From: Escherichia coli
Lineage (GTDB): Bacteria > Pseudomonadota > Gammaproteobacteria > Enterobacterales > Enterobacteriaceae
Strand: one strand, 5' to 3'
NCBI RefSeq assembly: GCF_050920415.1
Contig: NZ_CP169309.1
DNA: 64,000 bases
Below, in pieces: positions 1 to 17,929 of the stretch. Numbering within the stretch: the first letter of the stretch is position 1; each line of letters starts with the position of its first letter. A model generated the notes under the pieces. It was not told the DNA's origin and did not search any database. It saw nothing but the letters and a program-made list of their open reading frames with translations. Position numbers and translations under genes: made by a program.

Positions 1-416
1 GCACCTGACGGGCCAGCAACACTCAGGCCGTCGTACGCCCGTTGCGCCCGCAGTCTCAGCGAGGTGTCGCTTTCCATCACCGCGTCGGTGGTATCCGTTG
101 CCGGAGTGATAACCAGGCGCTTTGTGTTCATATTGCCTGCGAGGTTGTCCAGGTCTGTCCCGGCGCTGTGGCTTAACATGCAGGCGCGTGCACCCTCATT
201 GACCCGCTGGCGTAACAGCATTTCACGAAACGACATGGTTTGAGCGATAACGTTAAGGGGTTCCGATTCCAGCTCCAGCGCGGCGGAGACGGCTTCACGC
301 TGTTCGGCAGGATAGGACGCAATCATCATGGCCTTTGTGTCAGCCAGAATTGCCTCAAAGTCAGGCTCCGCGATGATGGCGGGTTCCGGTAACTGTGAAA
401 GGTCAACGGCGGGCAT
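1..416 (-). CDS. baseplate assembly protein J, N-terminal part only (gene runs off window start)
   Basis: Minus-strand translation from ATG at 416 gives MPAVDLSQLPEPAIIAEPDFEAILADTKAMM..., closely resembling recalled P2 gpJ N-terminus; start 4 nt upstream of gpW stop. Confidence 0.7.
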   Translation of the reverse strand, partial: MPAVDLSQLPEPAIIAEPDFEAILADTKAMMIASYPAEQREAVSAALELESEPLNVIAQTMSFREMLLRQRVNEGARACMLSHSAGTDLDNLAGNMNTKRLVITPATDTTDAVMESDTSLRLRAQRAYDGLSVAGPSG

Positions 417-419
417 GAT

Positions 420-770
420 TTACTCCCTCAGCGTGATGGTTAATTCAACATTCTGCATGGTCTGCATGACAGTGCCCGACAGCGTCACCCCGGCGCGGCC
501 TCCCGCTTTCCAGACAACGTCGATGGCATCCAGGGCAATGCGGGGTTCCCATCGTGTCAGCGCAATCACGGCAGCACTCATGCATTGCAGACGCGTGGTG
601 TTATTCATGGGTTCGTCAATCAAATCAGGCACAAGGCTGCCATATTCCCGTCGCATAACCCGGCTTGCCAGCGGGGTGGTCAGGATGTCCCTGGCTGACT
701 GTTTCAGGTGCTCCATATCGTTCAGGTTTCCCGTTCCGTCCGGGTTCATTCCTGTGTAGCGGGTTGTCAC
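420..770 (-). CDS. baseplate assembly protein W (gp25-like)
   Basis: 116-aa ORF, size and position (between V and J) match P2 gpW. Confidence 0.75.
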   Translation of the reverse strand: MTTRYTGMNPDGTGNLNDMEHLKQSARDILTTPLASRVMRREYGSLVPDLIDEPMNNTTRLQCMSAAVIALTRWEPRIALDAIDVVWKAGGRAGVTLSGTVMQTMQNVELTITLRE

Positions 771-1348
771 TGCGGGCCTCCTGTCGAATCGCTGCCACCT
801 TTCACGCCACCGTGTTTATGCGTATGCACGGTAATGCCGTTTGAGGTGAAATTGCCGCCGCTGTGCGTGATATTGCCGCTCATCTTTCCCCCTTTTGTGA
901 CGTCAAGCGTCGCCGTTCTCAGAAGGTCTGTGCATTCCACGACGGGCGTGTCCAGTGTCACGCTGACGGATGCCTGTAAAGTGGCCGTTTTCATGCCGCT
1001 GGCGCTCAGTGCGCCTGCGTCCGCGTCGTAGCGGAACACCGCGCCGTCCGGCGCGCTGATCACGATTTCTTTCAGGCTTTTGCCGGGGGCCGGATTGGCA
1101 TCACTCCACAGGCTGCCAATTATCATGGCGGTTTCCGGGTTGCCGCCAATGCAGGCAATTACCACCTGTTCGCCTGGTGATGGCGGCAGCCACACATTGA
1201 AGGCTCCCGCGCGCGTGGTGTTCCAGCGCAGCCAGCCTGTTTCCAGTTCGCCGCTGCGAACGCGCACGCGCCAGGACTTCTCATCAACTTCAGAGATGAT
1301 CCCGGTGCGGATGATATTGCTCAGCAGTCGCATGAGTTCTGCGCTCAC
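767..1348 (-). CDS. baseplate spike/assembly protein V
   Basis: 193-aa ORF upstream of W, overlapping stop/start; P2 gpV-like position. Confidence 0.7.
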   Translation of the reverse strand: MSAELMRLLSNIIRTGIISEVDEKSWRVRVRSGELETGWLRWNTTRAGAFNVWLPPSPGEQVVIACIGGNPETAMIIGSLWSDANPAPGKSLKEIVISAPDGAVFRYDADAGALSASGMKTATLQASVSVTLDTPVVECTDLLRTATLDVTKGGKMSGNITHSGGNFTSNGITVHTHKHGGVKGGSDSTGGPQ

Positions 1349-1989
1349 CGTACAGCCTCCGCAATCCGGCCCAGCACCGTGTTATAAATCAGGCGTTCAT
1401 CTGCCTGACTGATGCCCAACAGCTCACGTACCGGGTAATCGGTGAAAATGCCCGGCGCAACCTGATCGCGCTCACCGAACTGATGAACGCGTGCAATACG
1501 TGCGGCCACGCCGCTGTAACCCACCGTCACACCGGAAGCATCTGCACGGGCTTTCAGGTAGCGGGCGGTGCGCAGTTTTACGAACATGGGGACGCGCTTT
1601 GTGCTGTCCTGGTTGATGCGCCGGGTGCGTATTTCCAGAAAGCGGTCGATGTCATCCCGGTAAAACGTGCGGATGCTGTTTTTATCCTCATCCCACCCGG
1701 TGATGGTTCGCCCGTATTTCCCCGTGTCGTGATGCCAGTTTTTCAGCGTGCGTGCTTCGTTATTCCAGATAAAGCGAATGCGCTCCTGTATCCTGGTTAC
1801 GCGGCGTCTGCGTGGTGTCCATGCAGTCCCGTCCGGCGCTTTCTGTGACCGGATACGTGCCTGCTGGGCGCGACGTAAATCCTGTGCCAGCTTTCTGGCG
1901 ATGTTATTGATGGCCTGCTGATTCAGGCTGTCGCGGATAGCCTCAAAGGTTTCATCCACGCGGGTGAATGCCTTATCCATCGCTTTCAC
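1345..1989 (-). CDS. tail completion / virion morphogenesis protein (gpS-like)
   Basis: 214-aa ORF between R and V in the P2 order; longer than P2 gpS, so assignment is positional. Confidence 0.55.
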   Translation of the reverse strand: MKAMDKAFTRVDETFEAIRDSLNQQAINNIARKLAQDLRRAQQARIRSQKAPDGTAWTPRRRRVTRIQERIRFIWNNEARTLKNWHHDTGKYGRTITGWDEDKNSIRTFYRDDIDRFLEIRTRRINQDSTKRVPMFVKLRTARYLKARADASGVTVGYSGVAARIARVHQFGERDQVAPGIFTDYPVRELLGISQADERLIYNTVLGRIAEAVR

Positions 1990-2440
1990 CCCACGTCACA
2001 TCCTGGAATACATGCGACCAGTCGCCTTCGGAAGAGGGCAGACGGGGTTTTGGCTCCGGCAGGTGTTCTGCCTGCGGTGTCCCCTGACTGCTGCGCGTGA
2101 TGCGAACGCGTTCCCGCAGAGGGAGCGTAAACAGGAGATCGGCGCTGTCATCGTCATTGATAACGGCGGAGAATTTGATGTCCTGATTACGCTCCGGATT
2201 GAGCAACAATTGCGGCTGATTTTCGGATAACCACGCCAGTAGCGGCAGCGTGAGGTCGTCCAGCTCCCCGGCGTAATCCATGACAAACATCACCATCTGA
2301 TAGCGGTAAACAAACGAGGGCGTTTCTCCGGTCGTTTCAATGTTGCCGCTCTCCACGAAAATGGTGAATTTTTCCGGGTTGGCCTGACACCATCGGCATG
2401 AACGGGTCATGGCTTCACGCAGGGAATCAGTTTTCAGCAT
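1973..2440 (-). CDS. tail completion protein R
   Basis: 155-aa ORF, same length as P2 gpR and in the expected position after the lysis cassette. Confidence 0.65.
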   Translation of the reverse strand: MLKTDSLREAMTRSCRWCQANPEKFTIFVESGNIETTGETPSFVYRYQMVMFVMDYAGELDDLTLPLLAWLSENQPQLLLNPERNQDIKFSAVINDDDSADLLFTLPLRERVRITRSSQGTPQAEHLPEPKPRLPSSEGDWSHVFQDVTWGESDG

Positions 2441-2717
2441 GGTTGTTGTCCTCGTTGTTCAGTCGTTGCAGCCTGCGCTGTTCCAGTAATTCAATGGCCC
2501 GTTTATCCGCGTTACAGGTTTCCAGTGCATCCAGAAGGCGGTCGCCCCATATACCGAGATTTCCCCATGTGGGAGGGTCAGGGAAGGGGGGCGGCGTTAC
2601 CGGAATGGTCAGCGTCTGCGGTATAAGCCGGACTGACGGCGCTGGCAGTGGCGCGTTCTGCGTGCCTGCGCAGCCTGTCAGTAAAACGAGCGTCAGGCAA
2701 AGCGTGGGCGCATTCAT
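2427..2717 (-). CDS. o-spanin (LysC/Rz1-like outer-membrane lipoprotein), start taken at internal Met
   Basis: Lipoprotein signal with lipobox LVLLTGCAG, proline-rich mature part; out-of-frame overlap with the i-spanin 3' end. Confidence 0.55.
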   Translation of the reverse strand: MNAPTLCLTLVLLTGCAGTQNAPLPAPSVRLIPQTLTIPVTPPPFPDPPTWGNLGIWGDRLLDALETCNADKRAIELLEQRRLQRLNNEDNNHAEN

Positions 2718-2985
2718 CTTTTGCAATATCGTTGCGTAGCTGTTCACGTCTTACCTCTCCGTCCTGATTGCGTTGCTGATTTTCCACGCGGAGTTGCGCC
2801 AGCACCTGCTGCATATCCTGTACCCCGGCGCTGATGATATTCAGGGTGTCGGCGGTACTTTTCAGGGTGCTGGCCTGCGCTTCGTTTCTGGCGTTCTCCC
2901 GGCCCAGCGACCACGACAGACGCATGGATGTTCCCCATCCGGCAATCAGAAGGAAAGCGACGCCAAGCGTGGGCCAGAGCTTCAT
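2578..2985 (-). CDS. i-spanin (LysB/Rz-like)
   Basis: Start chosen at MKLWPTLGVAFLLIAGW (N-terminal TM helix) followed by charged coiled-coil-like region; ATGA overlap with endolysin stop. Confidence 0.55.
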   Translation of the reverse strand: MKLWPTLGVAFLLIAGWGTSMRLSWSLGRENARNEAQASTLKSTADTLNIISAGVQDMQQVLAQLRVENQQRNQDGEVRREQLRNDIAKDECAHALPDARFTDRLRRHAERATASAVSPAYTADADHSGNAAPLP

Positions 2986-3374
2986 GCCGGATAGGCTCCG
3001 TGTGGTAACTGAAAATGCGGTCCGTCTTTCAGGGTCTTCCAGTCGCCGCCCCATTCCACCGGAATATTCAGCTCCCGGCTGGCCTGTCTGAATGCTGCTG
3101 CGATTTTTTCGTACAGCGGCCATTCCCATGACACCTGGCTGCCGACATAAGCCACAACATCCACGGCATGCCCCGTAAGGTGGCGGCTGTTCATGGTCTG
3201 GCTCTTACCTGTGGCCACAAGTTGCTTCTGGCGGTAACGGCTGCGCAACCCTTCGGTGATACCAAAATCCACTTCCGAGATTTCCAGTGCCCGTCGGGTC
3301 ACTTTCACCAGATCAGGATTTACGCCCTGCAAATTCTTTTCGCTCCGGCTGCTGAATTTAAATGTGTTGCTCAT
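2982..3374 (-). CDS. endolysin, peptidase M15-type (L-alanyl-D-glutamate peptidase family)
   Basis: 130 aa with SRHLTGHAVD zinc-binding motif typical of M15 phage endolysins; sits between holin and spanins. Confidence 0.7.
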   Translation of the reverse strand: MSNTFKFSSRSEKNLQGVNPDLVKVTRRALEISEVDFGITEGLRSRYRQKQLVATGKSQTMNSRHLTGHAVDVVAYVGSQVSWEWPLYEKIAAAFRQASRELNIPVEWGGDWKTLKDGPHFQLPHGAYPA

Positions 3375-3694
3375 TCGTCCTTCTCCTTCACCCTGCGATT
3401 AAAGGCCGCAATAACCTTGTCGCGTGCTTTCTCTGCGCCCATAAAACCGATTGATGCGCCGATAAACGTCACGGCATCTTCAGGAAACCCGAAGAAGCGC
3501 AACGACCCGGCCACGGCCATGGCAAGAACGCCGCACGCCAGCGATCCCGTTACGGTCTGAACCAGTGTTCGTCCGTCATAAAGACTCATCAGCGCGGAAA
3601 TGCTGACTGCCGCGCCTACTGCATACACCGTTGGCAGGTGGTCAAAGAGCCACGCAATAACCTGCTCTGTGATCCCTGTTTGAATGGTGCTCAC
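3371..3694 (-). CDS. holin (GTG start)
   Basis: 107-aa product from GTG at 3694 with hydrophobic helices (AVGAAVSISALMSL, ACGVLAMAVAGSL); longer upstream ORF extension overlaps gene X and is rejected. Confidence 0.6.
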   Translation of the reverse strand: MSTIQTGITEQVIAWLFDHLPTVYAVGAAVSISALMSLYDGRTLVQTVTGSLACGVLAMAVAGSLRFFGFPEDAVTFIGASIGFMGAEKARDKVIAAFNRRVKEKDE

Positions 3695-3696
3695 TG

Positions 3697-3903
3697 CTAC
3701 TCCCCCCACAACTGAATCATTTCTCGTTTCTTCTTCTCCGGCTCCGGCATCTCCACGTCCTGCCCGGCGTCCAGAAATACCTGCTGACAGAGTCCGGGGT
3801 TGGCATCCAGCACCTTTTCGGTGACGCCCTGCGTCGTGCCGTAGTACCGGAAACAGAGCGAATCCACGGTGTCGCCTTCCAGTGCCTTCACTTTCATCAG
3901 CAC
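3697..3903 (-). CDS. tail protein X
   Basis: 68-aa ORF between L and the holin, same size and position as P2 gpX. Confidence 0.7.
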   Translation of the reverse strand: MLMKVKALEGDTVDSLCFRYYGTTQGVTEKVLDANPGLCQQVFLDAGQDVEMPEPEKKKREMIQLWGE

Positions 3904-4400
3904 AGCTCCGCAAAGATTCGCGGGCGGCGCAGAATGTCAGAGATGGCCCAGCTCACATCGCGCCACAAATCCGATGTCTGTATATCCAGTGCGTCCGCGC
4001 GGCGGTCGCCCTTATCCGTTGTGTCCGCATCGCGGTAACGCTCCAGAATCAGGGCGCGTGTGGCGGTATAAACGGCATTGCGCCAGTGCCAGAGATTGAC
4101 GCTTTCTCCGTTAATTACGGGTGCCGGAACATCGGCCAGCGTCTGATGGCCAGCCGCCTGTTGTTCCTGCTGCCACGCTTCCAGCTCGCGGGTAACGTGT
4201 GCCACGGCCCCGGTGGCGGTATGCAGCAGGCGGGAGGTGGTCACACGGCCCGGCAGTCGTATCGCCAGACGCAGCTCACGCAGCACAATATCCGGCCAGA
4301 ATGCGCCCGCTGAAATACGGGTATCACCATCATCGGTATCGGTGATGTCGTCCTCTGCGGGTCCGGGGTTGGTTCTGGCAACCATACTCATGGGGTTCAC
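3897..4400 (-). CDS. head completion/stabilisation protein L
   Basis: 167-aa ORF downstream of terminase M; P2 gpL position. Confidence 0.7.
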   Translation of the reverse strand: MNPMSMVARTNPGPAEDDITDTDDGDTRISAGAFWPDIVLRELRLAIRLPGRVTTSRLLHTATGAVAHVTRELEAWQQEQQAAGHQTLADVPAPVINGESVNLWHWRNAVYTATRALILERYRDADTTDKGDRRADALDIQTSDLWRDVSWAISDILRRPRIFAELC

Positions 4401-4492
4401 TCCTGAAAAAATCGGGCGGTGGGTGCGCGGTGTAAACGGTCACGGAGTCAAACCGGAACACCGCGCACGCCGCCCGCTGACGGGGTCAGTCG

Positions 4493-5293
4493 TTAACCGC
4501 GCTTCGCCTTCTGCGTCGCGGTGGTTTTTCGTGTTGCAGGCTTCCGCGTTGTTTTTTTACTTTTGCTGCTTTCGTCCTGCGTCTGCGGTGTGCTGGCATC
4601 TTCTGGTGCGGCTGCGGAATCAGCTTTCTTCAGGGCGCGGGAAAGGGTTGCAATCTCGCGTTTCACACCTGCGTTCGGGTTCAGGTGCATCGCTTCGCGC
4701 AGCAGCTTCAGTGATGAGGCCATGCTGTCCGCATCACTCAGGCCACGGCGGGCAAAGGCGCACGCCTTGCATAATTTGGCGCGCACTTCGTCCGGCATAT
4801 CCTGGTTGGCGACAATTTCCCAAAGTGTGTCCAGTGGTTCGATAAAGGTGGACAAATCCGCGTCGGCATCCGTCCCGGCCTGCGTCAGTACCGGGTTGCA
4901 GATTTCTTCGGTCAGTACCGTGGCAGCAGTACGGCCAAAGTTATCCGGCATGATGAGGTTGTGACGGACCACATACGCACCAATACGCAGCGCAAGCGGA
5001 AGATCGCCGCAGTCAATCGCCCACACCATCAGCGTGGCAATCACTTCGTCCTGCTGCCCGCCGTCAGCCTCCAGCGTTCCCTCAATCCAGCCGGAAAAAT
5101 CCGGCAACAACTCTTTTTTGATGGCGGCTTTCGCGCTTCTTGCCTGTACGCCCTTAAGCCGGGCCTGTGCCAGACGCAGACGATACAGCACCTCTTCATG
5201 CGCGGTACGCGCGGCGTGGTCCACGCCTTCATTCGCCCGGCCTGCGCGCTGTGCCATCACGTTCTGCCAGTGTTGCTGTGCAGGAGTAATCAT
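4493..5293 (-). CDS. terminase small (endonuclease) subunit M
   Basis: 266-aa ORF with basic Lys/Thr-rich C-terminal tail, between N and L as in P2. Confidence 0.7.
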   Translation of the reverse strand: MITPAQQHWQNVMAQRAGRANEGVDHAARTAHEEVLYRLRLAQARLKGVQARSAKAAIKKELLPDFSGWIEGTLEADGGQQDEVIATLMVWAIDCGDLPLALRIGAYVVRHNLIMPDNFGRTAATVLTEEICNPVLTQAGTDADADLSTFIEPLDTLWEIVANQDMPDEVRAKLCKACAFARRGLSDADSMASSLKLLREAMHLNPNAGVKREIATLSRALKKADSAAAPEDASTPQTQDESSKSKKTTRKPATRKTTATQKAKRG

Positions 5294-5338
5294 TTTTTCT
5301 CTCCGTTACAGGCGGGCATGATGCCCGCCGTGAGTTGA

Positions 5339-6391
5339 TTAGCTGTCGGCGAACTTCAGGCCAGTGACCATCGCGCACTTGCCATAGTCTTCAACGACAT
5401 AAGCGTCATTGATGGACTGGTAGGTGGCGATGCGGTTGTATTCCGGTTCGTCTTTCATCAGACGACGCATTGAACCTTTCTGCCAGTAAATCGACAGGTT
5501 GTTGAACGAGGTGATCAGCATCGTTGAATCCGGGAAGAACGGCGCAAGGAACACGCCCAGCCCGCCAATGGTGCGCGATGACAGAATGAGCTGCCCGGCG
5601 AGTAATTCCGCATTGGGATTCTGGCCGCTGATGCTGTTCAGCACGGGCAGACGCAGCGAGTTAAACAGGTTGCGCCCCATAATCACCACGAGGTCGTCAG
5701 CTTCCTTGTGCCATTCATCCAGCAGGGATGAGCGCGCGTCCTGTACCAGTGCATCAGCGTTCGCATACTTACCCGCGTGCGCCACGGTGTTGTCCATGTT
5801 ACGGGAGGTCAGCGTCACGTCATTCATAACGCGTTCGCTGGCGTCGGTTCTGATGTGCTCCAGCCAGCCCACGTTAACGTCCTGAAGCAACTTGTTGGTG
5901 CTGAAGTTAGACTCATCCGCGTGAGACGTGCCGTTGAAACCGATCATGATGCGGTCAAGTGCCACCTGTCGGGCAATCTGTGCGCTGATGCGGGACTGAA
6001 AATCAGGGTGTGCCGCCCAGGCATCAAGCTGCGGATATGAAATAAACGTGTCGTAGTTCACCTGTTCGCACTGGTATTTGCGGTTTTTCAGATCAACCAC
6101 GTTATTCGGGTTACGGCGTTTTGTGCCGTCATAACTGGTATTCGTGCGCGCAATCGGCCCGGTGGTATCCGGGAGGATTTTTTCGCCTTTCTGGTCGGTC
6201 ACGCCGATCACGTTAATTCTTTTTGTAAATTCGGTGCTTTCCTTTGAGGCGTTTTCAAAACGCTGCTGTACCGAGGGTTCCACGGTAAATCGCGATACCA
6301 GTGCGGAAACCGGGATATTGTTAAGCGACGCCTGCTGCGCCATATAGCAACCCAGCTTGTTGCGGGTAATATCTGACATCACCAGATTCAT
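5339..6391 (-). CDS. major capsid protein N
   Basis: 350-aa ORF between scaffold O and terminase M; P2 gpN-like size. Confidence 0.8.
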   Translation of the reverse strand: MNLVMSDITRNKLGCYMAQQASLNNIPVSALVSRFTVEPSVQQRFENASKESTEFTKRINVIGVTDQKGEKILPDTTGPIARTNTSYDGTKRRNPNNVVDLKNRKYQCEQVNYDTFISYPQLDAWAAHPDFQSRISAQIARQVALDRIMIGFNGTSHADESNFSTNKLLQDVNVGWLEHIRTDASERVMNDVTLTSRNMDNTVAHAGKYANADALVQDARSSLLDEWHKEADDLVVIMGRNLFNSLRLPVLNSISGQNPNAELLAGQLILSSRTIGGLGVFLAPFFPDSTMLITSFNNLSIYWQKGSMRRLMKDEPEYNRIATYQSINDAYVVEDYGKCAMVTGLKFADS

Positions 6392-6414
6392 AAAAAATTT
6401 GCTCCTTTGTCTTA

Positions 6415-7251
6415 TCAGAAGTCAGCCAGCTGGTCGGAGGCTGCGCCCGTTGCGGTGAACCGGTTCTGCGGATCGCCGTCCTGCGTGCGCAGTTTTTCCT
6501 TCAGTGCTGCCAGCTCTGTGGTCAGTGAAGTGATTTTCTGGCTGTCCTGCTGATGGCGGGTTTCCAGTGCATTAAAACGGTCGATAATGTCGGCCTGTGA
6601 CGTTGCGACGCCTTCCACCGCTTCCTGAATGCGGGAGAAACTGGCGTCATCCGCTTTGCGGCCACGGCCAATAATCCCCATTACGCGGTTAAACCACTGG
6701 GTGCCTTCTTCCTGGCGTTGTTCTGCCATTTCGATGATTTCAGACTCGATGGCTTCGGAGATAAGCGGTGCTTCACCCTGGACACTGTTGAACGTCATCA
6801 CCGCCTGACGTTGCTGTGCCGTGAATTTCAGGCGCTCAGTGCCCAGGCTTGCCGGGGTGTCGGTCATCGCCAGCCCGACCAGATAGGCGCGCCCGTTAAC
6901 GGAGAACTGCGGGTGCAGTTCGATACTGGAATAGATTTTCTTGCCGTCAGCGACAAGCTGCTTCATGCGCTCGGTCGGTTCGATTTCTGCATACAGCGCA
7001 GTACGTCCGGCCAGCGGGCCTTCCGTAATATCTTCCGTACTCAGCGCGGTGACATCGCCCATTGCGGAAAATTCGCTTGACGGGCATGGCGAGAGATAGT
7101 GCTCAACGTTCACGCGGGCAGCGTAAACATCCGGGTTGAAGTTCTCGGCGGCTTCACGCAGATGTACCGGACTGATTTCGCGGCCATCAACAGTTGATCC
7201 GGAGACAGCCACGCGAAACTTTTTGCGGGATGTCTTTTTTTCATTAGCCAT
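6415..7251 (-). CDS. capsid scaffolding protein O
   Basis: Start at MANEKKTSRKKFRVAVSG resembles recalled P2 gpO N-terminus; an alternative in-frame ATG lies at 7284. Confidence 0.7.
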   Translation of the reverse strand: MANEKKTSRKKFRVAVSGSTVDGREISPVHLREAAENFNPDVYAARVNVEHYLSPCPSSEFSAMGDVTALSTEDITEGPLAGRTALYAEIEPTERMKQLVADGKKIYSSIELHPQFSVNGRAYLVGLAMTDTPASLGTERLKFTAQQRQAVMTFNSVQGEAPLISEAIESEIIEMAEQRQEEGTQWFNRVMGIIGRGRKADDASFSRIQEAVEGVATSQADIIDRFNALETRHQQDSQKITSLTTELAALKEKLRTQDGDPQNRFTATGAASDQLADF

Positions 7252-7405
7252 AGTTTTTGCCCCTCTGACTGGTTCTTCAGTCATGATGGCAAAGCGTAAC
7301 AGGCTGATACAAAGGGCTTTTGTTGTAAGAAAACGGCCAGAACAGGGGGTTAAGGAGAACGGTTTCGCGCGCGGGTAATCTTCCTGTAATTACTCAGGGG
7401 GAGCA

Positions 7406-9157
7406 ATGATTCAGGACGCTTTTGTGCGCCAGCGTGCGCGGCAACTTTACTGGCAGGGTTATCCGCCCGCAGAAATATCACGTCTGATGGGAATAAACCC
7501 GAACACGATTTATGCGTGGAAAAAACGCGACCAGTGGGATGAAACGCCACCCGTGCAGCGTGTCACGCAGTCCATCGATGCGCGCCTCATCCAGCTCACT
7601 GAAAAACAGAATAAAACAGGTGGTGACTTCAAGGAAATAGACCTGCTGACCCGGCAGCTTAAAAAACTGCATGATGGCCAGCCGGATGCGACGGCCACAG
7701 GAAAGAAAGGCCGGGCGAAAAAGCTTAAAAATCATTTCACGCCGGAACAGATTGCCGCACTGCGGGAAAAAATCATCAGCAGGCTGGAGTGGCATCAGCG
7801 GGGCTGGTTTGACTCCCTGACCCTTTGCAGGGAAGCAGGGATACGTAACAGGATGATCCTGAAATCCCGACAGATTGGGGCGACCTGGTATTTTGCACAG
7901 GAAGCGCTGCTGATGGCGCTGCGTGACGATGTGGCGCAACCTTACCAGCGTAACCAGATTTTTTTGTCTGCGTCGCGTCGTCAGGCGTTCCAGTTTAAAA
8001 GCATTATTCAGAAGGCCGCGGCTGAAGTTGATGTGGAGTTGAAAGGGGGCGATAAAATCATCCTCTCCAACGGCGCAGAGCTGCATTTTCTCGGCACTTC
8101 TGCTGCGTCGGCACAGTCCTATACGGGCAATTTTTATTTTGATGAATTTTTCTGGGTCAGTCGCTTTGCTGAACTGCGCAAGGTGGCTGGCGCTATGGCA
8201 ACCCTCAGCGGACTGCGGCGCACCTACTTCTCCACGCCATCCACCGAAACGCACGAGGCATACGCCTACTGGAACGGCGACCGCTGGAACGAGAAAAAGG
8301 CCACGCATAAACGCCAGCGTTTTTCTGTGGACTGGAAAACGCTGCATAACGGGCTTATCTGCCCTGACCGGACGTGGCGGCAAATTGTCACGCTGGAAGA
8401 TGTGGTTAATCACGGCTGGAAACACACCGATATCGACGAAATTCGTGATGAAAACACCGAAGACGAGTTCCTCAATCTCTATATGTGTGAGTTTGTCCGC
8501 GAAGGGGAATCGGCATTTAACCTGAATATCCTGATTGGCTGCGGTGTTGACGGATACGACGACTGGAAAGACTGGAAACCTTTTGCTCCCCGCCCGATGG
8601 GGAATCGTCCGGTATGGATTGGGTATGACGCAAACGGCAGCAGTGGCAACGGCGACAGCGGCGCTGTGTCCGTGGTGGTTCCTCCGTCTGTTCCTGGTGG
8701 CCGTTTTCGAACGGTGGAGACGCGACGCGCTCAGGGGCTGGAGTTTGAAGAACAGGCCAGAGTCATTGAAGAGTTCACGTGTCGCTACAACGTGGAACAC
8801 ATCGGCATTGATGTGACGGGCGGGAACGGGGAGGCTGTTTATCAGATAGTGAAACGGTTTTTCCCTGCCGCTATTCCGTACACCTTCACGCTGTCATCAA
8901 AACGGTCGCTGGTACTGAAAATGCTGCAAATAATGCGTGCCGGGCGGTGGGAATACGATCGCGCCGAACGCGAGCTGGTCGCGGCCTTTAACGCCGTGCG
9001 TAAGGTGAAAACACCGGGCGGCTTTATCACTTACGAAACGGACCGCGCGAGGGGGATCAGCCACGGCGACCTTGCGTGGGCAACCATGCTTGCTGTCATT
9101 AACGAACCAATTGGCGGCGAAGGAGAAAACGAGCGTTTCACGGTTATGGAGTTCTGA
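7406..9157 (+). CDS. terminase large (ATPase) subunit P
   Basis: 583-aa ORF divergent from O, P2 gpP-like size and position. Confidence 0.8.
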   Translation: MIQDAFVRQRARQLYWQGYPPAEISRLMGINPNTIYAWKKRDQWDETPPVQRVTQSIDARLIQLTEKQNKTGGDFKEIDLLTRQLKKLHDGQPDATATGKKGRAKKLKNHFTPEQIAALREKIISRLEWHQRGWFDSLTLCREAGIRNRMILKSRQIGATWYFAQEALLMALRDDVAQPYQRNQIFLSASRRQAFQFKSIIQKAAAEVDVELKGGDKIILSNGAELHFLGTSAASAQSYTGNFYFDEFFWVSRFAELRKVAGAMATLSGLRRTYFSTPSTETHEAYAYWNGDRWNEKKATHKRQRFSVDWKTLHNGLICPDRTWRQIVTLEDVVNHGWKHTDIDEIRDENTEDEFLNLYMCEFVREGESAFNLNILIGCGVDGYDDWKDWKPFAPRPMGNRPVWIGYDANGSSGNGDSGAVSVVVPPSVPGGRFRTVETRRAQGLEFEEQARVIEEFTCRYNVEHIGIDVTGGNGEAVYQIVKRFFPAAIPYTFTLSSKRSLVLKMLQIMRAGRWEYDRAERELVAAFNAVRKVKTPGGFITYETDRARGISHGDLAWATMLAVINEPIGGEGENERFTVMEF

Positions 9158-10203
9158 TGAGCAGAAAAAATAAAAAAGTGCGCATGAGTTCACGCATTGA
9201 TCTCGCTGATGCGCTCAGGAAAGAATCATCGCTCAGTGCATTCACATTTGATGGTCCTTATCGCCTGACCGGGCATGACCTGCTGGACAATATGTACTGT
9301 GCTGATAACGGGCGGTGGTATGAAACCCCGGTGGACTGGTACGGTCTGGCAAGAGCCGCCCGGCAAACGTCCTGGCATCAGTCTGCGCTTTACTTTAAGC
9401 GCAATGTATTGCTCGGTTGCTACATCCCGCACCCGCTGCTTTCCCGGCAGGATTTCTCGGCGCTGGCGCTGGACTGGTTTGTGTTCGGTAACGCATTCCT
9501 TGAGCTTCGAAGCAATATGCTCGGCGAACCGCTTAAATTACGGCACGCCCTGGCGAAATACATGCGACGCGGAAGCGATCTTGAATCATGGTGGTATGTG
9601 CAGGATGGCAAGGATGCGTTTCAGTTTCGCCCAGGCAAAGTGTGCCACCTGATGAATCCGGACATTAACCAGGAAATCTACGGCATGCCGGAATATCTCG
9701 GCGCATTACTCTCGGCCAGCCTGTCTCATTCGGCGGACATGTTCAGAAAACTGTATTACGACAACGGATCCCACGCCGGGTGCATCATCTACATCGGTGC
9801 AGCGCAGGTAAACCGCGAAAGCATGGACTCCCTGAAAGAAACGCTACAGGGTGCGCGTGGTGGTGGTGCGTTTAAAAACGTGCTCATTCATGCGCCCAAC
9901 GGGGGCAAAGAGGGGGTGCAAATTTTGCCGTTCCAGCAGATCACCGCAAAGGATGAGTTCATGAATGTTAAGGCGGCATCCCGTGATGATGTGCTGGCTG
10001 CGCACCGCGTTCCGCCGCAACTGATGGGGGCGATGCCGGGTGAAAAAAGTGCGTTTGGTGATGTGGAGAAGGCCGCGCGGGTTTACGCAATTAACGAGCT
10101 GATGCCCGTCATGGAGGCCATGAAGCATATCAATGACTGGCTTGGCGAAGAGGTGCTCCGCTTTAACCCTTACGCACTGCTGGACACCCAGCCCACATCC
10201 TGA
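9157..10203 (+). CDS. portal protein Q
   Basis: 348-aa ORF directly downstream of P, start overlapping P stop; P2 gpQ-like size. Confidence 0.8.
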   Translation: MSRKNKKVRMSSRIDLADALRKESSLSAFTFDGPYRLTGHDLLDNMYCADNGRWYETPVDWYGLARAARQTSWHQSALYFKRNVLLGCYIPHPLLSRQDFSALALDWFVFGNAFLELRSNMLGEPLKLRHALAKYMRRGSDLESWWYVQDGKDAFQFRPGKVCHLMNPDINQEIYGMPEYLGALLSASLSHSADMFRKLYYDNGSHAGCIIYIGAAQVNRESMDSLKETLQGARGGGAFKNVLIHAPNGGKEGVQILPFQQITAKDEFMNVKAASRDDVLAAHRVPPQLMGAMPGEKSAFGDVEKAARVYAINELMPVMEAMKHINDWLGEEVLRFNPYALLDTQPTS

Positions 10204-10694
10204 CGCGCTTCGCTTGTCTGCTGCTTCGCCGGGGCATAAAAAATTTATGCCCCGACTCTCCAGCTCCTGTATCAGTCAGATAATTTCACGACGCCTTCCA
10301 GTTTATCGCCACTATCGACAGTCAGACTCTTACGCAATCCCACTGCGCTGACTGCATGTTCTCGCCGCCTCAGTGCGATTTTGACGGCCTTATCTGCCAC
10401 CCCGTCAAATCAAAAGCCCTCACGTCTTTTTCACGCTCAGCGTGAGAAATACAGCCATTCTGTTGTGTCGCTGCGACATCGTTCAGGGGATGCTATTTAC
10501 CCCCTGAAACGCGGGCTGTTCCCCCGTCACCTGCGCGTAGAAAAAGCGCGTTTTTTTGTGCACGCACGGATCCTTGACGGATCCAGCCGCCACGCGGGCC
10601 GGAAGGGCAAAAAGTCGTTCAAAAAAATTGTGCAAATTTGTGCACTATTGTGCATTGAAATAAACGCCCTGGAAGAGGGCGTTTTGGCTCATTT
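10204..10694. other. non-coding region in the position of P2 cos / packaging site
   Basis: About 490 bp without credible ORF between portal Q and the accessory operon; contains three TGTGCA repeats (10631-10659) and a bidirectional hairpin cgccctggaagagggcg with flanking T/A runs. Cohesive-end sequence itself not identified. Confidence 0.35.
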
Positions 10695-10955
10695 CTATAG
10701 CTTTGATGCAGGCTGGGCTAGATGTAAGGGTTGGACATACCAGCCTTTTGATAACCAACTCTCTGCAACATCTTTACTCCTTGTTATTGCTGGTATTCCG
10801 ATGCCGTTATTTACATGCATCCATGCTACTGGCTCTGCTTCCAGCGATGCCAGTGCAATTTCATAAGCACGGCGTTCAATATTGTCTCGAACGTCCAGGC
10901 TGCCGATGCGCTCTTTGATTTCTTTAATCAGTTCTTTGTCGGTGAACGTTGTCAT
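10695..10955 (-). CDS. hypothetical protein (accessory operon, last gene)
   Basis: 86-aa ORF, no recognisable domain. Confidence 0.45.
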   Translation of the reverse strand: MTTFTDKELIKEIKERIGSLDVRDNIERRAYEIALASLEAEPVAWMHVNNGIGIPAITRSKDVAESWLSKGWYVQPLHLAQPASKL

Positions 10956-10965
10956 GTGTTAGTCC

Positions 10966-11229
10966 TTATCCTGCTGTGCTTTCAACTGATGAGGGGAACA
11001 AAATCTTTTCATCAAATCCGGCATTCATATCATGGACAGCAACACACCAATCCATCGACGAACGATTATCAAGAGCCTCCATGATTTCATCCATGCGGCG
11101 TAGGTCATACAGGTAAATGTTTTTATCGCCAATGGTGTAAAAACCAATTTTTTTCGGTGATGGACAGCGATCAAGAACGTCCTGTAATTCGTTCAACCAT
11201 GCCTGTTCTTTTTTTGTCAACGTTGCCAT
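10966..11229 (-). CDS. hypothetical protein (accessory operon)
   Basis: 87-aa product from internal Met MATLTKKEQAW; start trimmed to avoid overlap with upstream gene. Confidence 0.4.
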   Translation of the reverse strand: MATLTKKEQAWLNELQDVLDRCPSPKKIGFYTIGDKNIYLYDLRRMDEIMEALDNRSSMDWCVAVHDMNAGFDEKILFPSSVESTAG

Positions 11230-11230
11230 A

Positions 11231-11449
11231 TCAGTTTTCCTTATACGGATTAATTTTATTGTGCAATGTGTTGAACGACGCCCATACCACGTCGTTATAC
11301 AATTCAATAACTGGCTCAATTATTTTCCCGATTGCCCAGATAAAAATTAGCGGGGATATCGGTATCATCAACACGATAAACAGAATGAGAAACAGAAATT
11401 CTATTGCTCTACTCTTTCGCGGATAGTTTTTCCTGAATAGTGTAGGCAC
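11231..11449 (-). CDS. small membrane protein (accessory operon)
   Basis: 72 aa, GTG start preceded by AAGGAG; hydrophobic core FLFLILFIVLMIPISPLIFIWAIG; AT-rich. Confidence 0.45.
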   Translation of the reverse strand: MPTLFRKNYPRKSRAIEFLFLILFIVLMIPISPLIFIWAIGKIIEPVIELYNDVVWASFNTLHNKINPYKEN

Positions 11450-11450
11450 C

Positions 11451-11645
11451 TCACTCTCCTTTAATGCGAAAGTGGTTTTTCCAGCGGTTTTGCGCCGCGC
11501 TGGGCTTTTTGCAAAAACCGCAATCCATCATCCCGTAATATTTCATCAACCCCATTCGTCGGTTGCTGAGTCTCACCCACTGCCATACGCCTGGATCGTT
11601 TCTGCGAACTAACAGAATCTTTGCTTTACGGTTGTTGGTTGCCAT
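11451..11645 (-). CDS. small basic protein (accessory operon)
   Basis: 64 aa from ATG at 11645, preceded by AAGGGAGG Shine-Dalgarno. Confidence 0.45.
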   Translation of the reverse strand: MATNNRKAKILLVRRNDPGVWQWVRLSNRRMGLMKYYGMMDCGFCKKPSAAQNRWKNHFRIKGE

Positions 11646-11961
11646 ATCCCCCTCCCTTGATACCAATATTTACAACATGGCAAGCCTCTTTGAGCACCCA
11701 GTCAACAGCGTCTTTCCATGCTCCGGTTTCGGCTGGCGGATTCTCACGCTTTACCAGTTCATAGAAACGTACTGCTCTAACCAGTCCATCTGACGGTTTT
11801 GCCTGTAGTGCAGCCTGAGCTATGCGGTATGCCTGGAGTATACGGGCGTCGTTGATATCCATTCCGAACGGAATTTCTGATGATTGTGATTCTGCATCTT
11901 CAAGCCTGGCAATTTCTTTACGTAAGAAGTATTTCAACTCTTGTTTTTGTTTTCTGTTCAT
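11626..11961 (-). CDS. hypothetical protein (accessory operon)
   Basis: 111 aa; ATGA start/stop overlap with upstream zinc-finger gene; AAGGGA Shine-Dalgarno. Confidence 0.5.
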
Positions 11962-12290
11962 GCGTTTTTTCCCTTTTTGTCTGTCACTTCTCTCCTGATA
12001 ATTTCATTGCACAAATCCACGCACTCATTGCAGATGTAAACAGACGGTCCAGCAATCACCTTTGTGACTTCGTACTGGGATTTATTGCAGAAGCTGCAAT
12101 AAATCGTCTCCTCACCTGAAGTCCATGTTTTGCTGGTTTCGCCAGACATCAGTTGTTTGAGGTCTTTTTCACGACGAAGAACTATCTGGCCACATTCAGC
12201 TATTTTTTGGATGTTGACATTTTCTTCTTTCGCCAGCGCTTCCATCCGCTCAATCAGTCGCTGCGCTTTTTCTCTGTCAATGTGTTGCAT
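11958..12290 (-). CDS. small protein with C-terminal ClpX-type C4 zinc-finger domain
   Basis: Segment [40 protein letters not shown] closely matches the recalled N-terminal zinc-binding domain of ClpX ([40 protein letters not shown]); no AAA+ domain follows. AAGGGGGA Shine-Dalgarno. Confidence 0.6.
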
Positions 12291-12353
12291 TGTGTCCCCC
12301 TTGTTTATGCTCCCGGGTTAAAGTCATCAGGGCGGATGCGCCCTGATGTTGTG

Positions 12354-12665
12354 TTATTCGGGAAATAACGCCCGGATATTTCCGGCCATCTGACTGGTTA
12401 TCTGTGCGGCTGATACTGGCTGTGACGCGGGGCGTTCTGTCCTGGGTTGTGTCACTGATAACGCCTCATCATCAGCCCATGCAGCCAGTCGGTAAGCCTC
12501 TGCCGGATTCATTTTCAGTAGTGCCAGCCCGGCCAGAAAAGCCACGCGTTGACCACTTTTGCGGGCTTCTGGTGTAAGGCTGTCCAGCCAGGCGCATGCT
12601 TCGCCTTCGTTCTTGACGGCGGCGGGCTTCAGATAGAAACTTATCCGTCTGGTTGGTGTCGTCAT
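12354..12665 (-). CDS. ParR-like centromere-binding protein (ribbon-helix-helix)
   Basis: 103 aa; RRISFYLKP...WLDSL...FLAGLALL...NIRALFPE resembles recalled plasmid R1 ParR (RRTIAFKLNP...TLDSI...LTAGLALY...ILRSLFPKE); directly downstream of the ParM-like gene with AAGGAG Shine-Dalgarno. Confidence 0.6.
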   Translation of the reverse strand: MTTPTRRISFYLKPAAVKNEGEACAWLDSLTPEARKSGQRVAFLAGLALLKMNPAEAYRLAAWADDEALSVTQPRTERPASQPVSAAQITSQMAGNIRALFPE

Positions 12666-12669
12666 TGGC

Positions 12670-13629
12670 TTACTCCTTGTCCATTGCGTACAGCCCATTA
12701 ACCAGAGCAAACTGTGGCACCCCGTCCGCGATGAAAGTCGCATTAACTCCGCAGGCTTCGCGGATAGCGGGTGCCACAATCTCCGCCCCGCCACCGACAA
12801 CCATCACCCGCCCGTAACCCGAAAAACCCGCCAGCGCGCGGATCACGCGTTGTTTCAGTGTTTCTTCCTTTTCACGAATAACCGCCATCAGGCTGGCGTA
12901 ATGCGCGTCATTGTGGATGTGCTGGCGCAGCCAGGCTTCATCATGGCGATGTTCAATAATGGTATTGGCGATGTGGTGACTGGTGCGCATACCGTTAGTG
13001 GCCATCACCGACAGCACGGCATCGGCCATCAGTGAAACACCTACGTGTGGATCGCAAAACACCTGGCTGATACCTGCCAGTTGTCCCTGAACCTTTGCCA
13101 CATCCAGCGTGGTTCCGCCCAAATCCACAATCAGCAGGGATTCAAACGGACTCATGTCAGCCAGTGCCTTAAAGCCTGCCGGAATGGATTCAGGCATAAC
13201 CCGCACGTTACGGATAGTGAATGCCTCACCGTTCTGGTACTCCACCGGGCGCATAACGTTCGCTTTTTTGCGGTTGATGTTGGCCATGTCCGGCTGTGCG
13301 TTTGTGTCGAAATACTCGCTCAGTGGCAGGGTGACAACCACATCCACCTCCTGTGGCGTGATGCCTGATTTGACCAGCGCGTGATGAATGGCAATGACAT
13401 TCACATCGCTGTATTGGTATTGCGTGTCGGTCGTCTGGACAAAGCGATCGCTGACCGGATCAAAACCATAGCGCACGCCATCAAGCATGTAGTTCGCGGG
13501 CTGCGTGCCACCGAACGGCGCAGACCATTCCGACTTGAAGCTGTTCGGGCTGATGGCGTTGCGGCGTTCGCCGTTCTCAGTCCATGCCAGCTTGATGTTG
13601 GTGGAGCCGTCGTCGATACAAATTTTCAT
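12670..13629 (-). CDS. ParM/StbA-like actin-fold segregation ATPase
   Basis: 319 aa with the ParM nucleotide-binding motifs: MKICIDDGSTNIKLAW (phosphate 1), IVDLGGTTLDV (connect/adenosine), VMVVGGGAEI (phosphate 2). Confidence 0.8.
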   Translation of the reverse strand: MKICIDDGSTNIKLAWTENGERRNAISPNSFKSEWSAPFGGTQPANYMLDGVRYGFDPVSDRFVQTTDTQYQYSDVNVIAIHHALVKSGITPQEVDVVVTLPLSEYFDTNAQPDMANINRKKANVMRPVEYQNGEAFTIRNVRVMPESIPAGFKALADMSPFESLLIVDLGGTTLDVAKVQGQLAGISQVFCDPHVGVSLMADAVLSVMATNGMRTSHHIANTIIEHRHDEAWLRQHIHNDAHYASLMAVIREKEETLKQRVIRALAGFSGYGRVMVVGGGAEIVAPAIREACGVNATFIADGVPQFALVNGLYAMDKE

Positions 13630-13660
13630 GTCGCTTTTCCTTATGTTGATTAATTAATCG

Positions 13661-13760
13661 TTTACGGGATTCTGAAATCCCGTTTTTGCCTGCTTTGTGC
13701 GCGCTTCATATATCACTGCGCGTTTTTTGCTCATTTACGGGATTCGTGAGTCCCGTTTCT
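13661..13760. repeat. two direct copies of a 27-bp hairpin-containing repeat upstream of the ParM-like gene
   Basis: TTTACGGGATTCTGAAATCCCGTTTTT (13661-13687) and TTTACGGGATTCGTGAGTCCCGTTTCT (13734-13760), 22/27 identical, each an ACGGGA/TCCCGT inverted repeat; the second lies inside the 3' end of gene A. Confidence 0.5.
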
Positions 13761-16528: not shown

Positions 16529-16534
16529 AGTGAT

Positions 16535-16900
16535 TTACTTCGTCATGCCATTCAGGGTGTCGCGGCAGACTGTAGCCAGCCGCTGAATTTCCAGCACGGT
16601 GTCTTCTGTGTCGGCATGGCGATGTGTGATGCGGATGCTGTCGGCAATCACATCGACGATTGCAGAGGATGGGCGCTGGTAAATGCCAATAACGGACGGG
16701 GTGCCACCTTCAATGCGGTAAAGCCTGTAATTTCCCTCGTGGCTGTCAATCATGTAGCGACCATCAATAACAATCTTTCCGTCAGCGAGCTGCGGTACAG
16801 GCAGGGATTTCAGGTACATGTCATAACGATCACGCACGCGAGCGGCAAGATCACGTTCTGTGTTGAGCAGGTATTCAAGAAAGTCGTTGGCGAGAATCAT
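16535..16900 (-). CDS. hypothetical early protein
   Basis: 121-aa ORF immediately upstream of A on the same strand. Confidence 0.45.
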   Translation of the reverse strand: MILANDFLEYLLNTERDLAARVRDRYDMYLKSLPVPQLADGKIVIDGRYMIDSHEGNYRLYRIEGGTPSVIGIYQRPSSAIVDVIADSIRITHRHADTEDTVLEIQRLATVCRDTLNGMTK

Positions 16901-17041
16901 TGCGGCAATCCTCTTGTTACAGATGTGCGAAGGCCTCCCGCCGCAAGGTGCAGGAAAGGCCCGGAACAGGAATTAATGGAGTTTGTTTTGCAGCCGGATG
17001 AGCTGCTGAAGCCCGACGTGGTTTCCGGCAGTTGGAGGTGC

Positions 17042-17287
17042 TCATGCTCTGATTTCCCTCAGTAGCTGGTTGAACATCTGGGTTAGTGGGTTGCTACACC
17101 CAAACGGCATCGGGTTTACCTGATAGGAAAAGCGACCGCCTGTTTTGCGCTCTTTTCTTATGACTGAACCGCTGCGCCAGAGACGGCGTAGCTCCGCATT
17201 AATGGTTGTGGTTGGTGTATTCAGTGCTGCGGCGATTTCTCCACCGCTACAACCCGGATTGGCAGCGATGTAGTCCAGAATGGTCAT
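17042..17287 (-). CDS. small putative winged-helix DNA-binding protein
   Basis: 81 aa; pattern ILDYIAANPGCSGGEIAAALN...INAELRRLWRSG suggests a winged helix. Confidence 0.45.
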   Translation of the reverse strand: MTILDYIAANPGCSGGEIAAALNTPTTTINAELRRLWRSGSVIRKERKTGGRFSYQVNPMPFGCSNPLTQMFNQLLREIRA

Positions 17288-17487
17288 CTGCGTGACTCCT
17301 GTACCTGTCTGATAAGATTCACCTGCACCACGTTGGTGGCGCAGAAGTAAGTGCCGTCAGTGAGATAGATGTGATGTGCATCCTTTTCTGAACGGTGTTT
17401 GTCGATTGTGGTAATCAGGCGTTCGTCAACTTCGTATTCACGTCCTCTGGAGGTGAAACGAACGACAGGAAAATGCTTAATTGCCAT
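17284..17487 (-). CDS. hypothetical early protein
   Basis: 67 aa from ATG at 17487 preceded by AAGGAGG; a longer upstream extension to 17538 is possible. Confidence 0.4.
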   Translation of the reverse strand: MAIKHFPVVRFTSRGREYEVDERLITTIDKHRSEKDAHHIYLTDGTYFCATNVVQVNLIRQVQESRR

Positions 17488-17683
17488 TACGCCTCCTTGG
17501 CGTGTGCGAATACCTCCGCGAATGCGGATTGTTTTCACATTTTCTTATTTAACCTGGGGTCTTATTTGCGCGGTTATTCTTCAGTGAAAAAGCGTTCAAT
17601 CTTTTTTACTGAATTAATAATTCGCATAATCCCAATGGCGCAGACCACCGAAATAATCAGAACAAGCCATGAGATAAATATAC

Positions 17684-17929
17684 TCATGCGATATTTCCCA
17701 GCTTATACGGTTCAATATGTTCCCCGCATTCTGCGGCACAGATCAGCTCGGAAAGTTCGTTAAGTGCATCCAGATCATCAGCGTAAAAAGCCACGTCATA
17801 CAGACTTCGGATTGCTCTGGTCAATGAGTCACGGGCCGCACGTTCAGCATGAGTGCCTGATGCACTTAAGCGAAAATAAAAACGCTCAAGTGCTTTGTTA
17901 ATGAGAGTTTTATATTCTTTGCCCATCAC
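17684..17929 (-). CDS. hypothetical early protein
   Basis: 81-aa ORF in the early operon. Confidence 0.4.
   Translation of the reverse strand: MMGKEYKTLINKALERFYFRLSASGTHAERAARDSLTRAIRSLYDVAFYADDLDALNELSELICAAECGEHIEPYKLGNIA

Follow-up and report, generated by a model that had tools for sequence, protein, structure and literature searches.

An M15-type endolysin in the lysis cassette of a P88-like Escherichia coli prophage

Results and discussion

A complete lysis cassette of four genes, encoding a holin of the lambda S family, an M15 endolysin, an i-spanin and an overlapped o-spanin of the LysC type, was found at positions 2427-3694 on the minus strand of the window, i.e. the whole 64,000-nucleotide stretch of E. 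coli DNA that was analysed (contig NZ_CP169309.1). It is very probably the canonical three-step lysis cassette of a P88-like E. coli prophage, embedded in a long late transcript. The coordinates given in a preliminary description of the sequence proved exact: the holin gene begins with its GTG at 3694, and the o-spanin stop codon ends at 2427. The cassette is already known; RefSeq and the record of phage P88 both annotate it.

Table 1. Genes of the lysis cassette, its two flanking tail genes and the segment replaced in relatives (window coordinates)
Feature	Position	Strand	Description
Tail protein X homologue	3697-3903	-	PF05489 Phage_tail_X, E 1.7e-20; upstream flank of the cassette
Holin, 107 aa	3371-3694	-	GTG start; PF05106 Phage_holin_3_1, 71 bits, E 1e-19
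Endolysin, 130 aa, soluble	2982-3374	-	PF13539 Peptidase_M15_4; ATG overlaps the holin stop (ATGA)
i-spanin (Rz/LysB analogue), 135 aa	2578-2985	-	phrog_214 Rz-like spanin, E 1.5e-41
o-spanin (LysC/Rz1 type), lipoprotein	2427-2747	-	PF23793 LysC, 49 bits, E 5.5e-13; phrog_3001, phrog_456
Tail completion protein R homologue	1973-2440	-	PF06891 P2_Phage_GpR, E 4.6e-40; downstream flank of the cassette
Segment replaced in GH108-carrying relatives	2964-3394	-	Endolysin ORF with some 20 nt at either end

Location of the cassette and identity of the prophage

The cassette is flanked by homologues of the tail genes X and R, which are 48% and 40% identical to their P2 counterparts, and this location corresponds to the P2 lysis slot. 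The endolysin sits where P2 has gene K, as had been proposed. The gene order on the minus strand is O-N-M-L-X-holin-endolysin-spanins-R-S. ATGA overlaps were present at two junctions, holin/endolysin and endolysin/i-spanin, and the 3' end of the o-spanin gene shares 14 nt with the start of R. A scan of window positions 1-8000 for sigma-70 promoters and intrinsic terminators gave no signal that exceeded the shuffled expectation, and the cassette itself contained nothing meaningful. No site for a P2-type Ogr activator (TGT-N12-ACA) with the right spacing was present in the O/P intergenic region (7285-7405), and no tRNA genes were found in the window.

On the basis of nucleotide comparison, the prophage is assigned to the P88-like phages of the genus Xuanwuvirus, family Peduoviridae, which makes it a distant relative of P2 and not P2 itself. 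The late region (window 300-6500) was 97.4% identical to P88 in a single collinear block, and the cassette with its flanks (window 2300-4000) was 98.3-99.1% identical to phages P88, 500465-2, Chuche and P884B11. The counterpart in P88 (Xuanwuvirus P88, NC_026014; 98.5% over window 2300-4000) comprises gp30-gp32 and an unannotated lysC, with the same gene order and ATGA overlaps; it differs from the window cassette by point differences only, and the two endolysins are 99.2% identical. P88 itself is inducible by mitomycin C and forms plaques (PMC5285337). The window prophage differs from P88 in its integration beside yecA/tyrP and in a separate set of cargo genes, located between those for the portal and ParM.

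Of 5426 complete E. coli genomes, 1007 (~19%, about one in five) carried the M15 version of the cassette, and its genes bear the annotation 'M15 family metallopeptidase / phage holin / DUF2570 / LysC' there. The copy in E. coli M19 matched the window cassette at 100%. Of the window as a whole, only 1-10654, 12328-17012 and 17031-18553 matched M19, at 94-99%, and the M19 prophage is integrated at pdxB rather than beside yecA/tyrP.

Holin and spanins

The product of the first gene, a small multi-span membrane protein encoded directly 5' of the endolysin, was assigned from its profile matches and hydrophobicity to the lambda S family of holins (class I, three predicted membrane spans). In addition to the Pfam match, it belonged to the holin/anti-holin family phrog_126 (E 2e-35), and it scored 54.5 bits against the NCBIfam equivalog TIGR01594 holin_lambda, slightly below the cut-off of 55.05. 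Hydrophobic segments were located at residues ~20-39 and ~44-70, and a third one was weaker. A Shine-Dalgarno sequence (GGGGGAG) lies immediately 5' of the GTG start. When the gene was checked for a lambda-like dual-start (antiholin) motif, the next in-frame Met was residue 36, and an in-frame GTG five codons upstream of the start would add no charged residue.

The two spanin genes form a two-component pair of an i-spanin with an N-terminal span and an overlapping lipoprotein o-spanin. The membrane anchor of the i-spanin is at hydrophobic residues 1-21. Its match to DUF2570 was weak and under the Pfam cut-off, and its match to the LysB family phrog_89 reached only E 1e-4; P2 LysB likewise matched phrog_214 at E 2e-4. 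The o-spanin gene has the overlapped architecture: it starts in the +1 frame within the i-spanin gene (overlap 2747-2578) and ends 151 nt beyond the i-spanin stop. Either GTG 2747, with GGAGAGG 6 nt 5' of it, or ATG 2717 is a candidate start. A lipobox (LTGC, residues 23-26) is followed by a proline-rich mature part, and lysC is annotated by RefSeq at the corresponding place in other strains. An NCBIfam search returned no model for the spanins or the endolysin.

Endolysin

The 130-aa endolysin is classed by profile and alignment as a member of the M15C/LAS family of zinc peptidases, in agreement with the earlier assignment. It matched PF13539 with 46 bits (cut-off 25; E 7.8e-12) and the endolysin family phrog_465 with E 4e-77. 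The profile search gave no match to any lysozyme or transglycosylase family. The closest matches in the PDB were 23ri (E 1.5e-48, 63.2% identity) and ChiX of Serratia (5opz; E 1.8e-48, 61.9% identity over the full length); further matches were 8q2g, the T5 endolysin 2mxz (E 1.2e-22) and Ply500 2vo9. The identity of 62-63% over the full length to the solved structures 5opz and 23ri, both L-Ala-D-Glu endopeptidases, suggests that the protein adopts the LAS fold. No hydrophobic segment and no signal or SAR sequence was detected in it (maximum Kyte-Doolittle score 0.72).

The S.H..G.A.D pattern matched once, as SRHLTGHAVD at residues 63-72, and so the motif previously reported is present. In the alignment with ChiX, endolysin residues R44, H65, D72, D117 and H120 correspond to R47, H68, D75, D120 and H123; all five are conserved, giving the His-Asp-His zinc triad, the catalytic Asp and the substrate-binding Arg of M15 enzymes. 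The SxHxxGxAxD motif is a mark of M15/LAS enzymes generally. The preliminary description had taken it as a sign of an L-Ala-D-Glu peptidase; it holds as a sign of the family, whereas the bond specificity rests on the 62% identity to ChiX. In ChiX the Zn ligands are H68, D75 and H123, D120 is essential, and cleavage of L-Ala-D-Glu was shown experimentally (PMC5778951). By this homology, the window endolysin would probably cut the same bond.

The nearest relatives of the endolysin outside the genus (75-79%) belonged to unrelated phages, namely 9NA/Sashavirus, phiP27 and an Actinobacillus phage. None of the Escherichia phages in this set was on the list of tblastn matches to the holin.

Exchange of the endolysin gene within the genus

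In Citrobacter phage Shae_phiSM, in E. coli IHE3034 and in 32 E. coli genomes, the endolysin slot is occupied by a GH108 muramidase. By blastn, Shae_phiSM was collinear with the window at 97% identity from 6497 to 3394 and from 2964 to 300, with no match in the gap between them. The alignments at the junctions showed that homology fades within the final ~25 nt of the holin gene, to return ~20 nt into the i-spanin gene. The backbone of Shae_phiSM and IHE3034 is alike on both sides of the endolysin (97% nucleotide identity), and their holin and i-spanin are each 90-91% identical to those of the window. Their endolysin is a 181-aa muramidase with GH108 and PG_binding_3 domains, in contrast to the 130-aa M15 peptidase, and a 54-nt spacer lies in front of its gene, where the M15 gene has an ATGA overlap. 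The GH108 allele is rare, with 32 genomes against 1007 with the M15 version. In the related genus Senquatrovirus, SEN4 has a homologous holin (55% identity) but a GH24 lysozyme (PF00959) and a DUF2514 spanin.

These alignments identify the endolysin position as a single-gene exchange slot, in which either an M15 peptidase or a GH108 muramidase is found within one genus. The module exchange that had been suggested is strongly and directly supported by this swap within the genus; the endolysin, however, is not the sole part that departs from P2, as the holin is also of another type, the i-spanin is probably so, and LysA is lacking.

The breakpoints lie ~25 nt or less from the ORF ends, in the 3' end of the holin gene and the 5' end of the i-spanin gene. 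Two non-homologous enzyme classes segregate in natural E. coli and Citrobacter populations. It is conceivable, if rather doubtful, that the endolysin position of P88-like phages is a precise hotspot of single-gene replacement and that the 1007:32 skew reflects selection over drift. If selection did lie behind this skew, it might act, for example, through host peptidoglycan chemistry or compatibility with the holin.

Beyond correct annotation, the cassette is of little importance, as it is a textbook holin-endolysin-spanin module. It has a modest value as a clean natural replacement of a single endolysin gene within an otherwise 97% identical phage backbone. The lysin tree of the P88 paper spanned non-homologous enzymes; as the cassette recalls, 'lysin' does not serve as an orthologous marker among P2-like phages. 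The globular 130-aa Gram-negative endolysin, with its 62% identity to ChiX, could also be of practical interest as a scaffold for enzybiotics; for close relatives, structures and a characterisation are already available.

Proposed mode of lysis and alternative explanations

According to the lambda/P2 paradigm, the lambda-S-type holin would build up in the inner membrane and form large holes at a programmed time. The signal-less zinc peptidase would then reach the periplasm and cut the L-Ala-D-Glu bond of the peptidoglycan stem peptide, after which the i-spanin/o-spanin pair would fuse the inner and outer membranes. Translation of the genes is coupled via the ATGA overlaps. Holin-dependent, timed lysis would be expected, and the cassette is probably expressed from the late operon.

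The substrate of the enzyme might be questioned, as the SxHxxGxAxD motif is also common to VanX/VanY-type enzymes and the Pfam description of PF13539 reads 'D-alanyl-D-alanine carboxypeptidase'. A D-Ala-D-Ala carboxypeptidase or dipeptidase is nonetheless very unlikely: the strongest matches (ChiX, 8q2g, 2mxz and 2vo9) are described L-Ala-D-Glu peptidases or their close relatives, and ChiX, for which cleavage of this bond has been demonstrated experimentally, is 62% identical over the full length. Systems of a pinholin and a SAR-endolysin, in which the Sec-exported endolysin is freed by membrane depolarisation and no large holes are made, are common in enterobacterial prophages. The chance that the window cassette is one of them is negligible, given a holin of the large-hole lambda S family and an endolysin without any N-terminal hydrophobic segment.

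Two other alternatives concern the role of the cassette in the cell. It is highly improbable that it is a domesticated, non-lytic secretion device like chiWXYZ of Serratia, in which the holin and endopeptidase export specific proteins while most cells are not killed. ChiX is the closest characterised homologue of the endolysin, and chiWXYZ has a comparable composition (see below), but the window cassette lies within a complete P2-type morphogenetic operon, between the tail genes X and R, and is 98-99% identical to those of P88 and phiSM, both of which can be induced and form plaques; chiWXYZ is explicitly not associated with a prophage. An intact cassette that is only a silent remnant in this strain, within a prophage defective overall, is also improbable. 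At gene J the prophage runs out of the window, which leaves its genes for tail fibre, sheath and tube and the ogr gene outside, and in the related M19 copy a block of tail genes is inverted and gpD is truncated. Against this, the window ORFs from W to the integrase are all of full length, and they run collinear with either P88 or the prophage of E. coli 15A. Nothing contradicts a canonical lysis cassette of a P88-like prophage, which remains the preferred explanation.

Comparison with known lysis systems

The cassettes of P2 (Y-K-lysA-lysB-lysC) and 186 (Orf24-P-lysB-lysC) share with that of the window the X-R slot in the late operon and the functional order of holin, endolysin, i-spanin and overlapped o-spanin. 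LysC is the only component of clear P2 type: the o-spanin and P2 LysC both belong to PF23793, and the identity is 29% to P2 LysC and 33% to 186 LysC. The holin belongs to PF05106, whereas P2 Y belongs to PF04550, and it gave no blastp match to P2 Y or 186 Orf24. The M15 endolysin has no similarity to P2 K; the K/P enzyme of P2 and 186 belongs to phrog_90. The best family of the i-spanin is phrog_214/DUF2570, against phrog_89 for P2 LysB, and no blastp match to the LysB of P2 or 186 was obtained. No match to LysA was found in the cassette, and there is no room for a lysA gene because the endolysin stop overlaps the i-spanin start (ATGA at 2985-2982). The view of the late operon as otherwise P2-like holds for the slot and the gene order; the backbone is that of a Xuanwuvirus, with no nucleotide match to P2 and only 24-48% identity of the flanking structural proteins to those of P2 and 186. 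On this background, difference from P2, taken alone, is weak evidence of recent mosaicism.

A likeness was also seen to the chiWXYZ operon of Serratia marcescens. ChiX (PDB 5opz) shares 62% identity and identical zinc and catalytic residues with the endolysin. In chiWXYZ its partner ChiW, a holin of the lambda family, has a single start codon, and two spanin genes are also present (PMC4259817), so that the single-start holin and the two downstream spanin genes are common to both systems. chiWXYZ differs in being chromosomal, unlinked to a prophage and used for chitinase secretion (PMC5778951, PMC4259817), and in having ChiY (o-spanin) and ChiZ (i-spanin) encoded by separate genes in the reverse order to those of the window (PMC4259817). 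It is conceivable, though rather doubtful, that a cassette of the P88-like type is the ancestor from which chiWXYZ was domesticated.

In the comparison with T5 foreseen in the preliminary description, the likeness is limited to the endolysin family. The T5 enzyme (L-alanoyl-D-glutamate peptidase, PDB 2mxz) shares the M15C/LAS fold family and the motif, and the window endolysin is 37-38% identical to endolysins of T5-like phages. The T5 enzyme is a far more distant relative than ChiX or the enzymes of 9NA, phiP27 or the RB49 type (Krischvirus), and T5 is a virulent siphovirus with a lysis gene context unrelated to that of the window.

Prophage organisation

A P2-type prophage fills the leftmost 21.5 kb of the window, with its late genes on the minus strand; their order was established by an ORF listing with Pfam and PHROG scans. 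The segment singled out in the preliminary description, 2427-3694, coincides exactly with the lysis cassette, running from the start of the holin gene to the o-spanin stop codon.

Late genes of the prophage and neighbouring terminase and portal genes
Feature	Window coordinates	Strand	Source
W	420-770	-	ORF listing, Pfam/PHROG
V	767-1348	-	ORF listing, Pfam/PHROG
S	1345-1989	-	ORF listing, Pfam/PHROG
R	1973-2440	-	ORF listing, Pfam/PHROG
o-spanin	2427-2747	-	ORF listing, Pfam/PHROG
i-spanin	2578-2985	-	ORF listing, Pfam/PHROG
endolysin	2982-3374	-	ORF listing, Pfam/PHROG
holin	3371-3694	-	ORF listing, Pfam/PHROG
X	3697-3903	-	ORF listing, Pfam/PHROG
L	3897-4400	-	ORF listing, Pfam/PHROG
M	4493-5293	-	ORF listing, Pfam/PHROG
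N	5339-6391	-	ORF listing, Pfam/PHROG
O	6415-7284	-	ORF listing, Pfam/PHROG
terminase and portal genes, divergent from the late genes	7406-10203	+	

A variable, low-GC (0.47) cargo slot (10204-12330) was observed at the position of old/tin in P2, between the portal gene and a ParM-like gene. It holds small anonymous ORFs and a ClpX-C4 zinc-finger ORF (11958-12290, -), and its content is unlike among the window and E. coli strains 15A and M19, the latter having an ead/Ea22-like gene there. In the early region, a gene for 'plasmid partitioning/stability' and one for a ParM-type plasmid segregation ATPase (12354-13629, -), names that RefSeq gives in matching strains, lie beside the replication endonuclease gene (13706-16528). 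The prophage ends with an integrase (20563-21564, +) adjoining yecA (21921-22586) and tyrP. The M19 copy (L005) has a near-identical late region but is integrated beside pdxB, and its integrase and immunity region are not those of the window, with no match past window 18553; one and the same late module is thus combined with different early and integration modules. In M19, at L005 2519-9361 (outside the window), the sheath, tube, E/E', tape measure and U genes lie on the strand opposite V-W-J-I-H-G, and the homologue of gpD is truncated, which suggests that an inversion took place and may have left the M19 copy inactive.

The lysis cassette

The 130-aa endolysin matched Peptidase_M15_4 (46 bits, cut-off 25, E 7.8e-12) and PHROG 465 'endolysin' (E 4e-77). 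Among solved structures, it matched 23ri (E 1.5e-48, 63.2% identity), the Serratia marcescens endopeptidase ChiX (5opz; E 1.8e-48, 61.9%), 8q2g ('L-alanyl-D-glutamate endopeptidase'), Listeria Ply500 and the T5 endolysin 2mxz (E 1.2e-22). No lysozyme or transglycosylase family was matched in Pfam, PHROG or the solved structures, and the M15 assignment previously made from the SxHxxGxAxD motif therefore stands; the motif occurs once, as SRHLTGHAVD at residues 63-72. L-Ala-D-Glu cleavage has been demonstrated for ChiX, in which His68, Asp75 and His123 bind zinc, Asp120 is essential and Arg47 is also described (PMC5778951). These residues align with H65, D72, H120, D117 and R44 of the endolysin. 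No hydrophobic segment was found in the endolysin, which points to a soluble, holin-dependent enzyme.

The 107-aa holin falls in the lambda S family (PF05106, 71 bits; TIGR01594, 54.5 bits against a cut-off of 55.05). The 135-aa i-spanin has an N-terminal membrane anchor and matched phrog_214 (E 1.5e-41), with a DUF2570 match under threshold. The o-spanin matched Pfam LysC (PF23793, E 5.5e-13) and carries a lipobox, LTGC, at residues 23-26; its gene starts in the +1 frame within the i-spanin gene and reaches 151 nt past its end. The o-spanin start is inconsistently annotated: RefSeq lysC of M19 begins at the equivalent of 2696 (CTG, 89 aa), the call is missing in some strains and in the record of phage P88, and two starts are available in the sequence, GTG 2747, behind a good Shine-Dalgarno, and ATG 2717. 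ATGA overlaps at the holin/endolysin and endolysin/i-spanin junctions imply that both gene pairs would be translationally coupled. Within the cassette, no terminator or promoter signal exceeded the chance level, which fits its predicted expression within a long late operon.

By homology with lambda and P2, the holin would accumulate and then trigger hole formation, the released zinc peptidase would cut the stem peptide at L-Ala-D-Glu, and the spanin complex would finally disrupt the outer membrane. A non-lytic role, like that of the Serratia chiWXYZ locus encoding ChiX, is unlikely, because the cassette is located in an operon for virion morphogenesis, in a type of phage that is inducible, whereas chiWXYZ is explicitly described as lying outside any prophage and its spanin layout differs.

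Distribution and endolysin exchange

Escherichia phages 500465-2, Chuche, P884B11 and P88 (genus Xuanwuvirus, family Peduoviridae) were 98.3-99.1% identical to window 2300-4000, and P88 aligned with 300-6500 as a single block (97.4% identity). P88 is mitomycin-inducible and forms plaques (PMC5285337). The cassette was present, at a coverage of at least 80%, in 1007 of 5426 complete E. coli genomes, where RefSeq names its products 'phage holin family protein / M15 family metallopeptidase / DUF2570 / LysC'. The arrangement is thus already known and common: the cassette is the annotated lysis module of a prophage family that is very frequent in E. coli, and nothing new.

Direct evidence of exchange was found within the genus. 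In Citrobacter phage Shae_phiSM, of the same genus, and in E. coli IHE3034, the endolysin slot holds a 181-aa GH108 + PG_binding_3 enzyme, a version present in 32 E. coli genomes. The M15 and GH108 backbones are 97% identical on both flanks; homology ends at 3394, in the terminal ~25 nt of the holin gene, and resumes at 2964, in the initial ~20 nt of the i-spanin gene, so the exchange unit is one gene. The closest M15 relatives outside the genus (75-79%) were in 9NA/Sashavirus siphoviruses, Stx phage phiP27 and an Actinobacillus phage, all of them unrelated phages, followed by PY100 (65%) and RB49-like Krischvirus (63%). The Escherichia phages among these carriers were absent from the tblastn matches listed for the holin, in which the only Escherichia records were thirteen P88-like phages. 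The endolysin thus moves independently of its holin.

Comparison with related phages

The holin of Salmonella phage SEN4 (Senquatrovirus) is 55% identical, matching the 35-52% identity of its structural proteins, but is paired with a lysozyme of PF00959 and a spanin of DUF2514. T5-type endolysins share 37-38% identity with that of the window. The window had no nucleotide match to P2, and the structural proteins of P2 and 186 are 24-48% identical to its own. By blastp, the holin, endolysin and i-spanin did not match P2 Y, K and LysB or 186 Orf24, P and LysB; the P2 proteins are assigned to PF04550/phrog_175 (Y), phrog_90 (K) and phrog_89 (LysB). LysA of P2 has no counterpart in the cassette, nor space for one. 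Among the cassette products, LysC alone has a clear homologue in P2 and 186 (29-33% identity). All of the cassette but LysC is thus unlike P2, on a backbone just distantly P2-like. Difference from P2 alone would be weak evidence of recent mosaicism. The preliminary observation is confirmed, and its reading, an M15 endolysin exchanged into an otherwise P2-like late operon, is supported with refinements: module exchange holds, with direct evidence within the genus, and the backbone is a distant relative of that of P2.

A 'lysin' tree over ten P2-like phages took lysin for a conserved gene and described P88 only as 'phylogenetically distinct' (PMC5285337). As an M15 peptidase, the lysin of P88 is of an enzyme class non-homologous to P2 K and 186 P. 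The 'overlapped' spanin architecture is the same in the annotations of P2 and 186, and the P2 O operon is likewise annotated as a long late operon.
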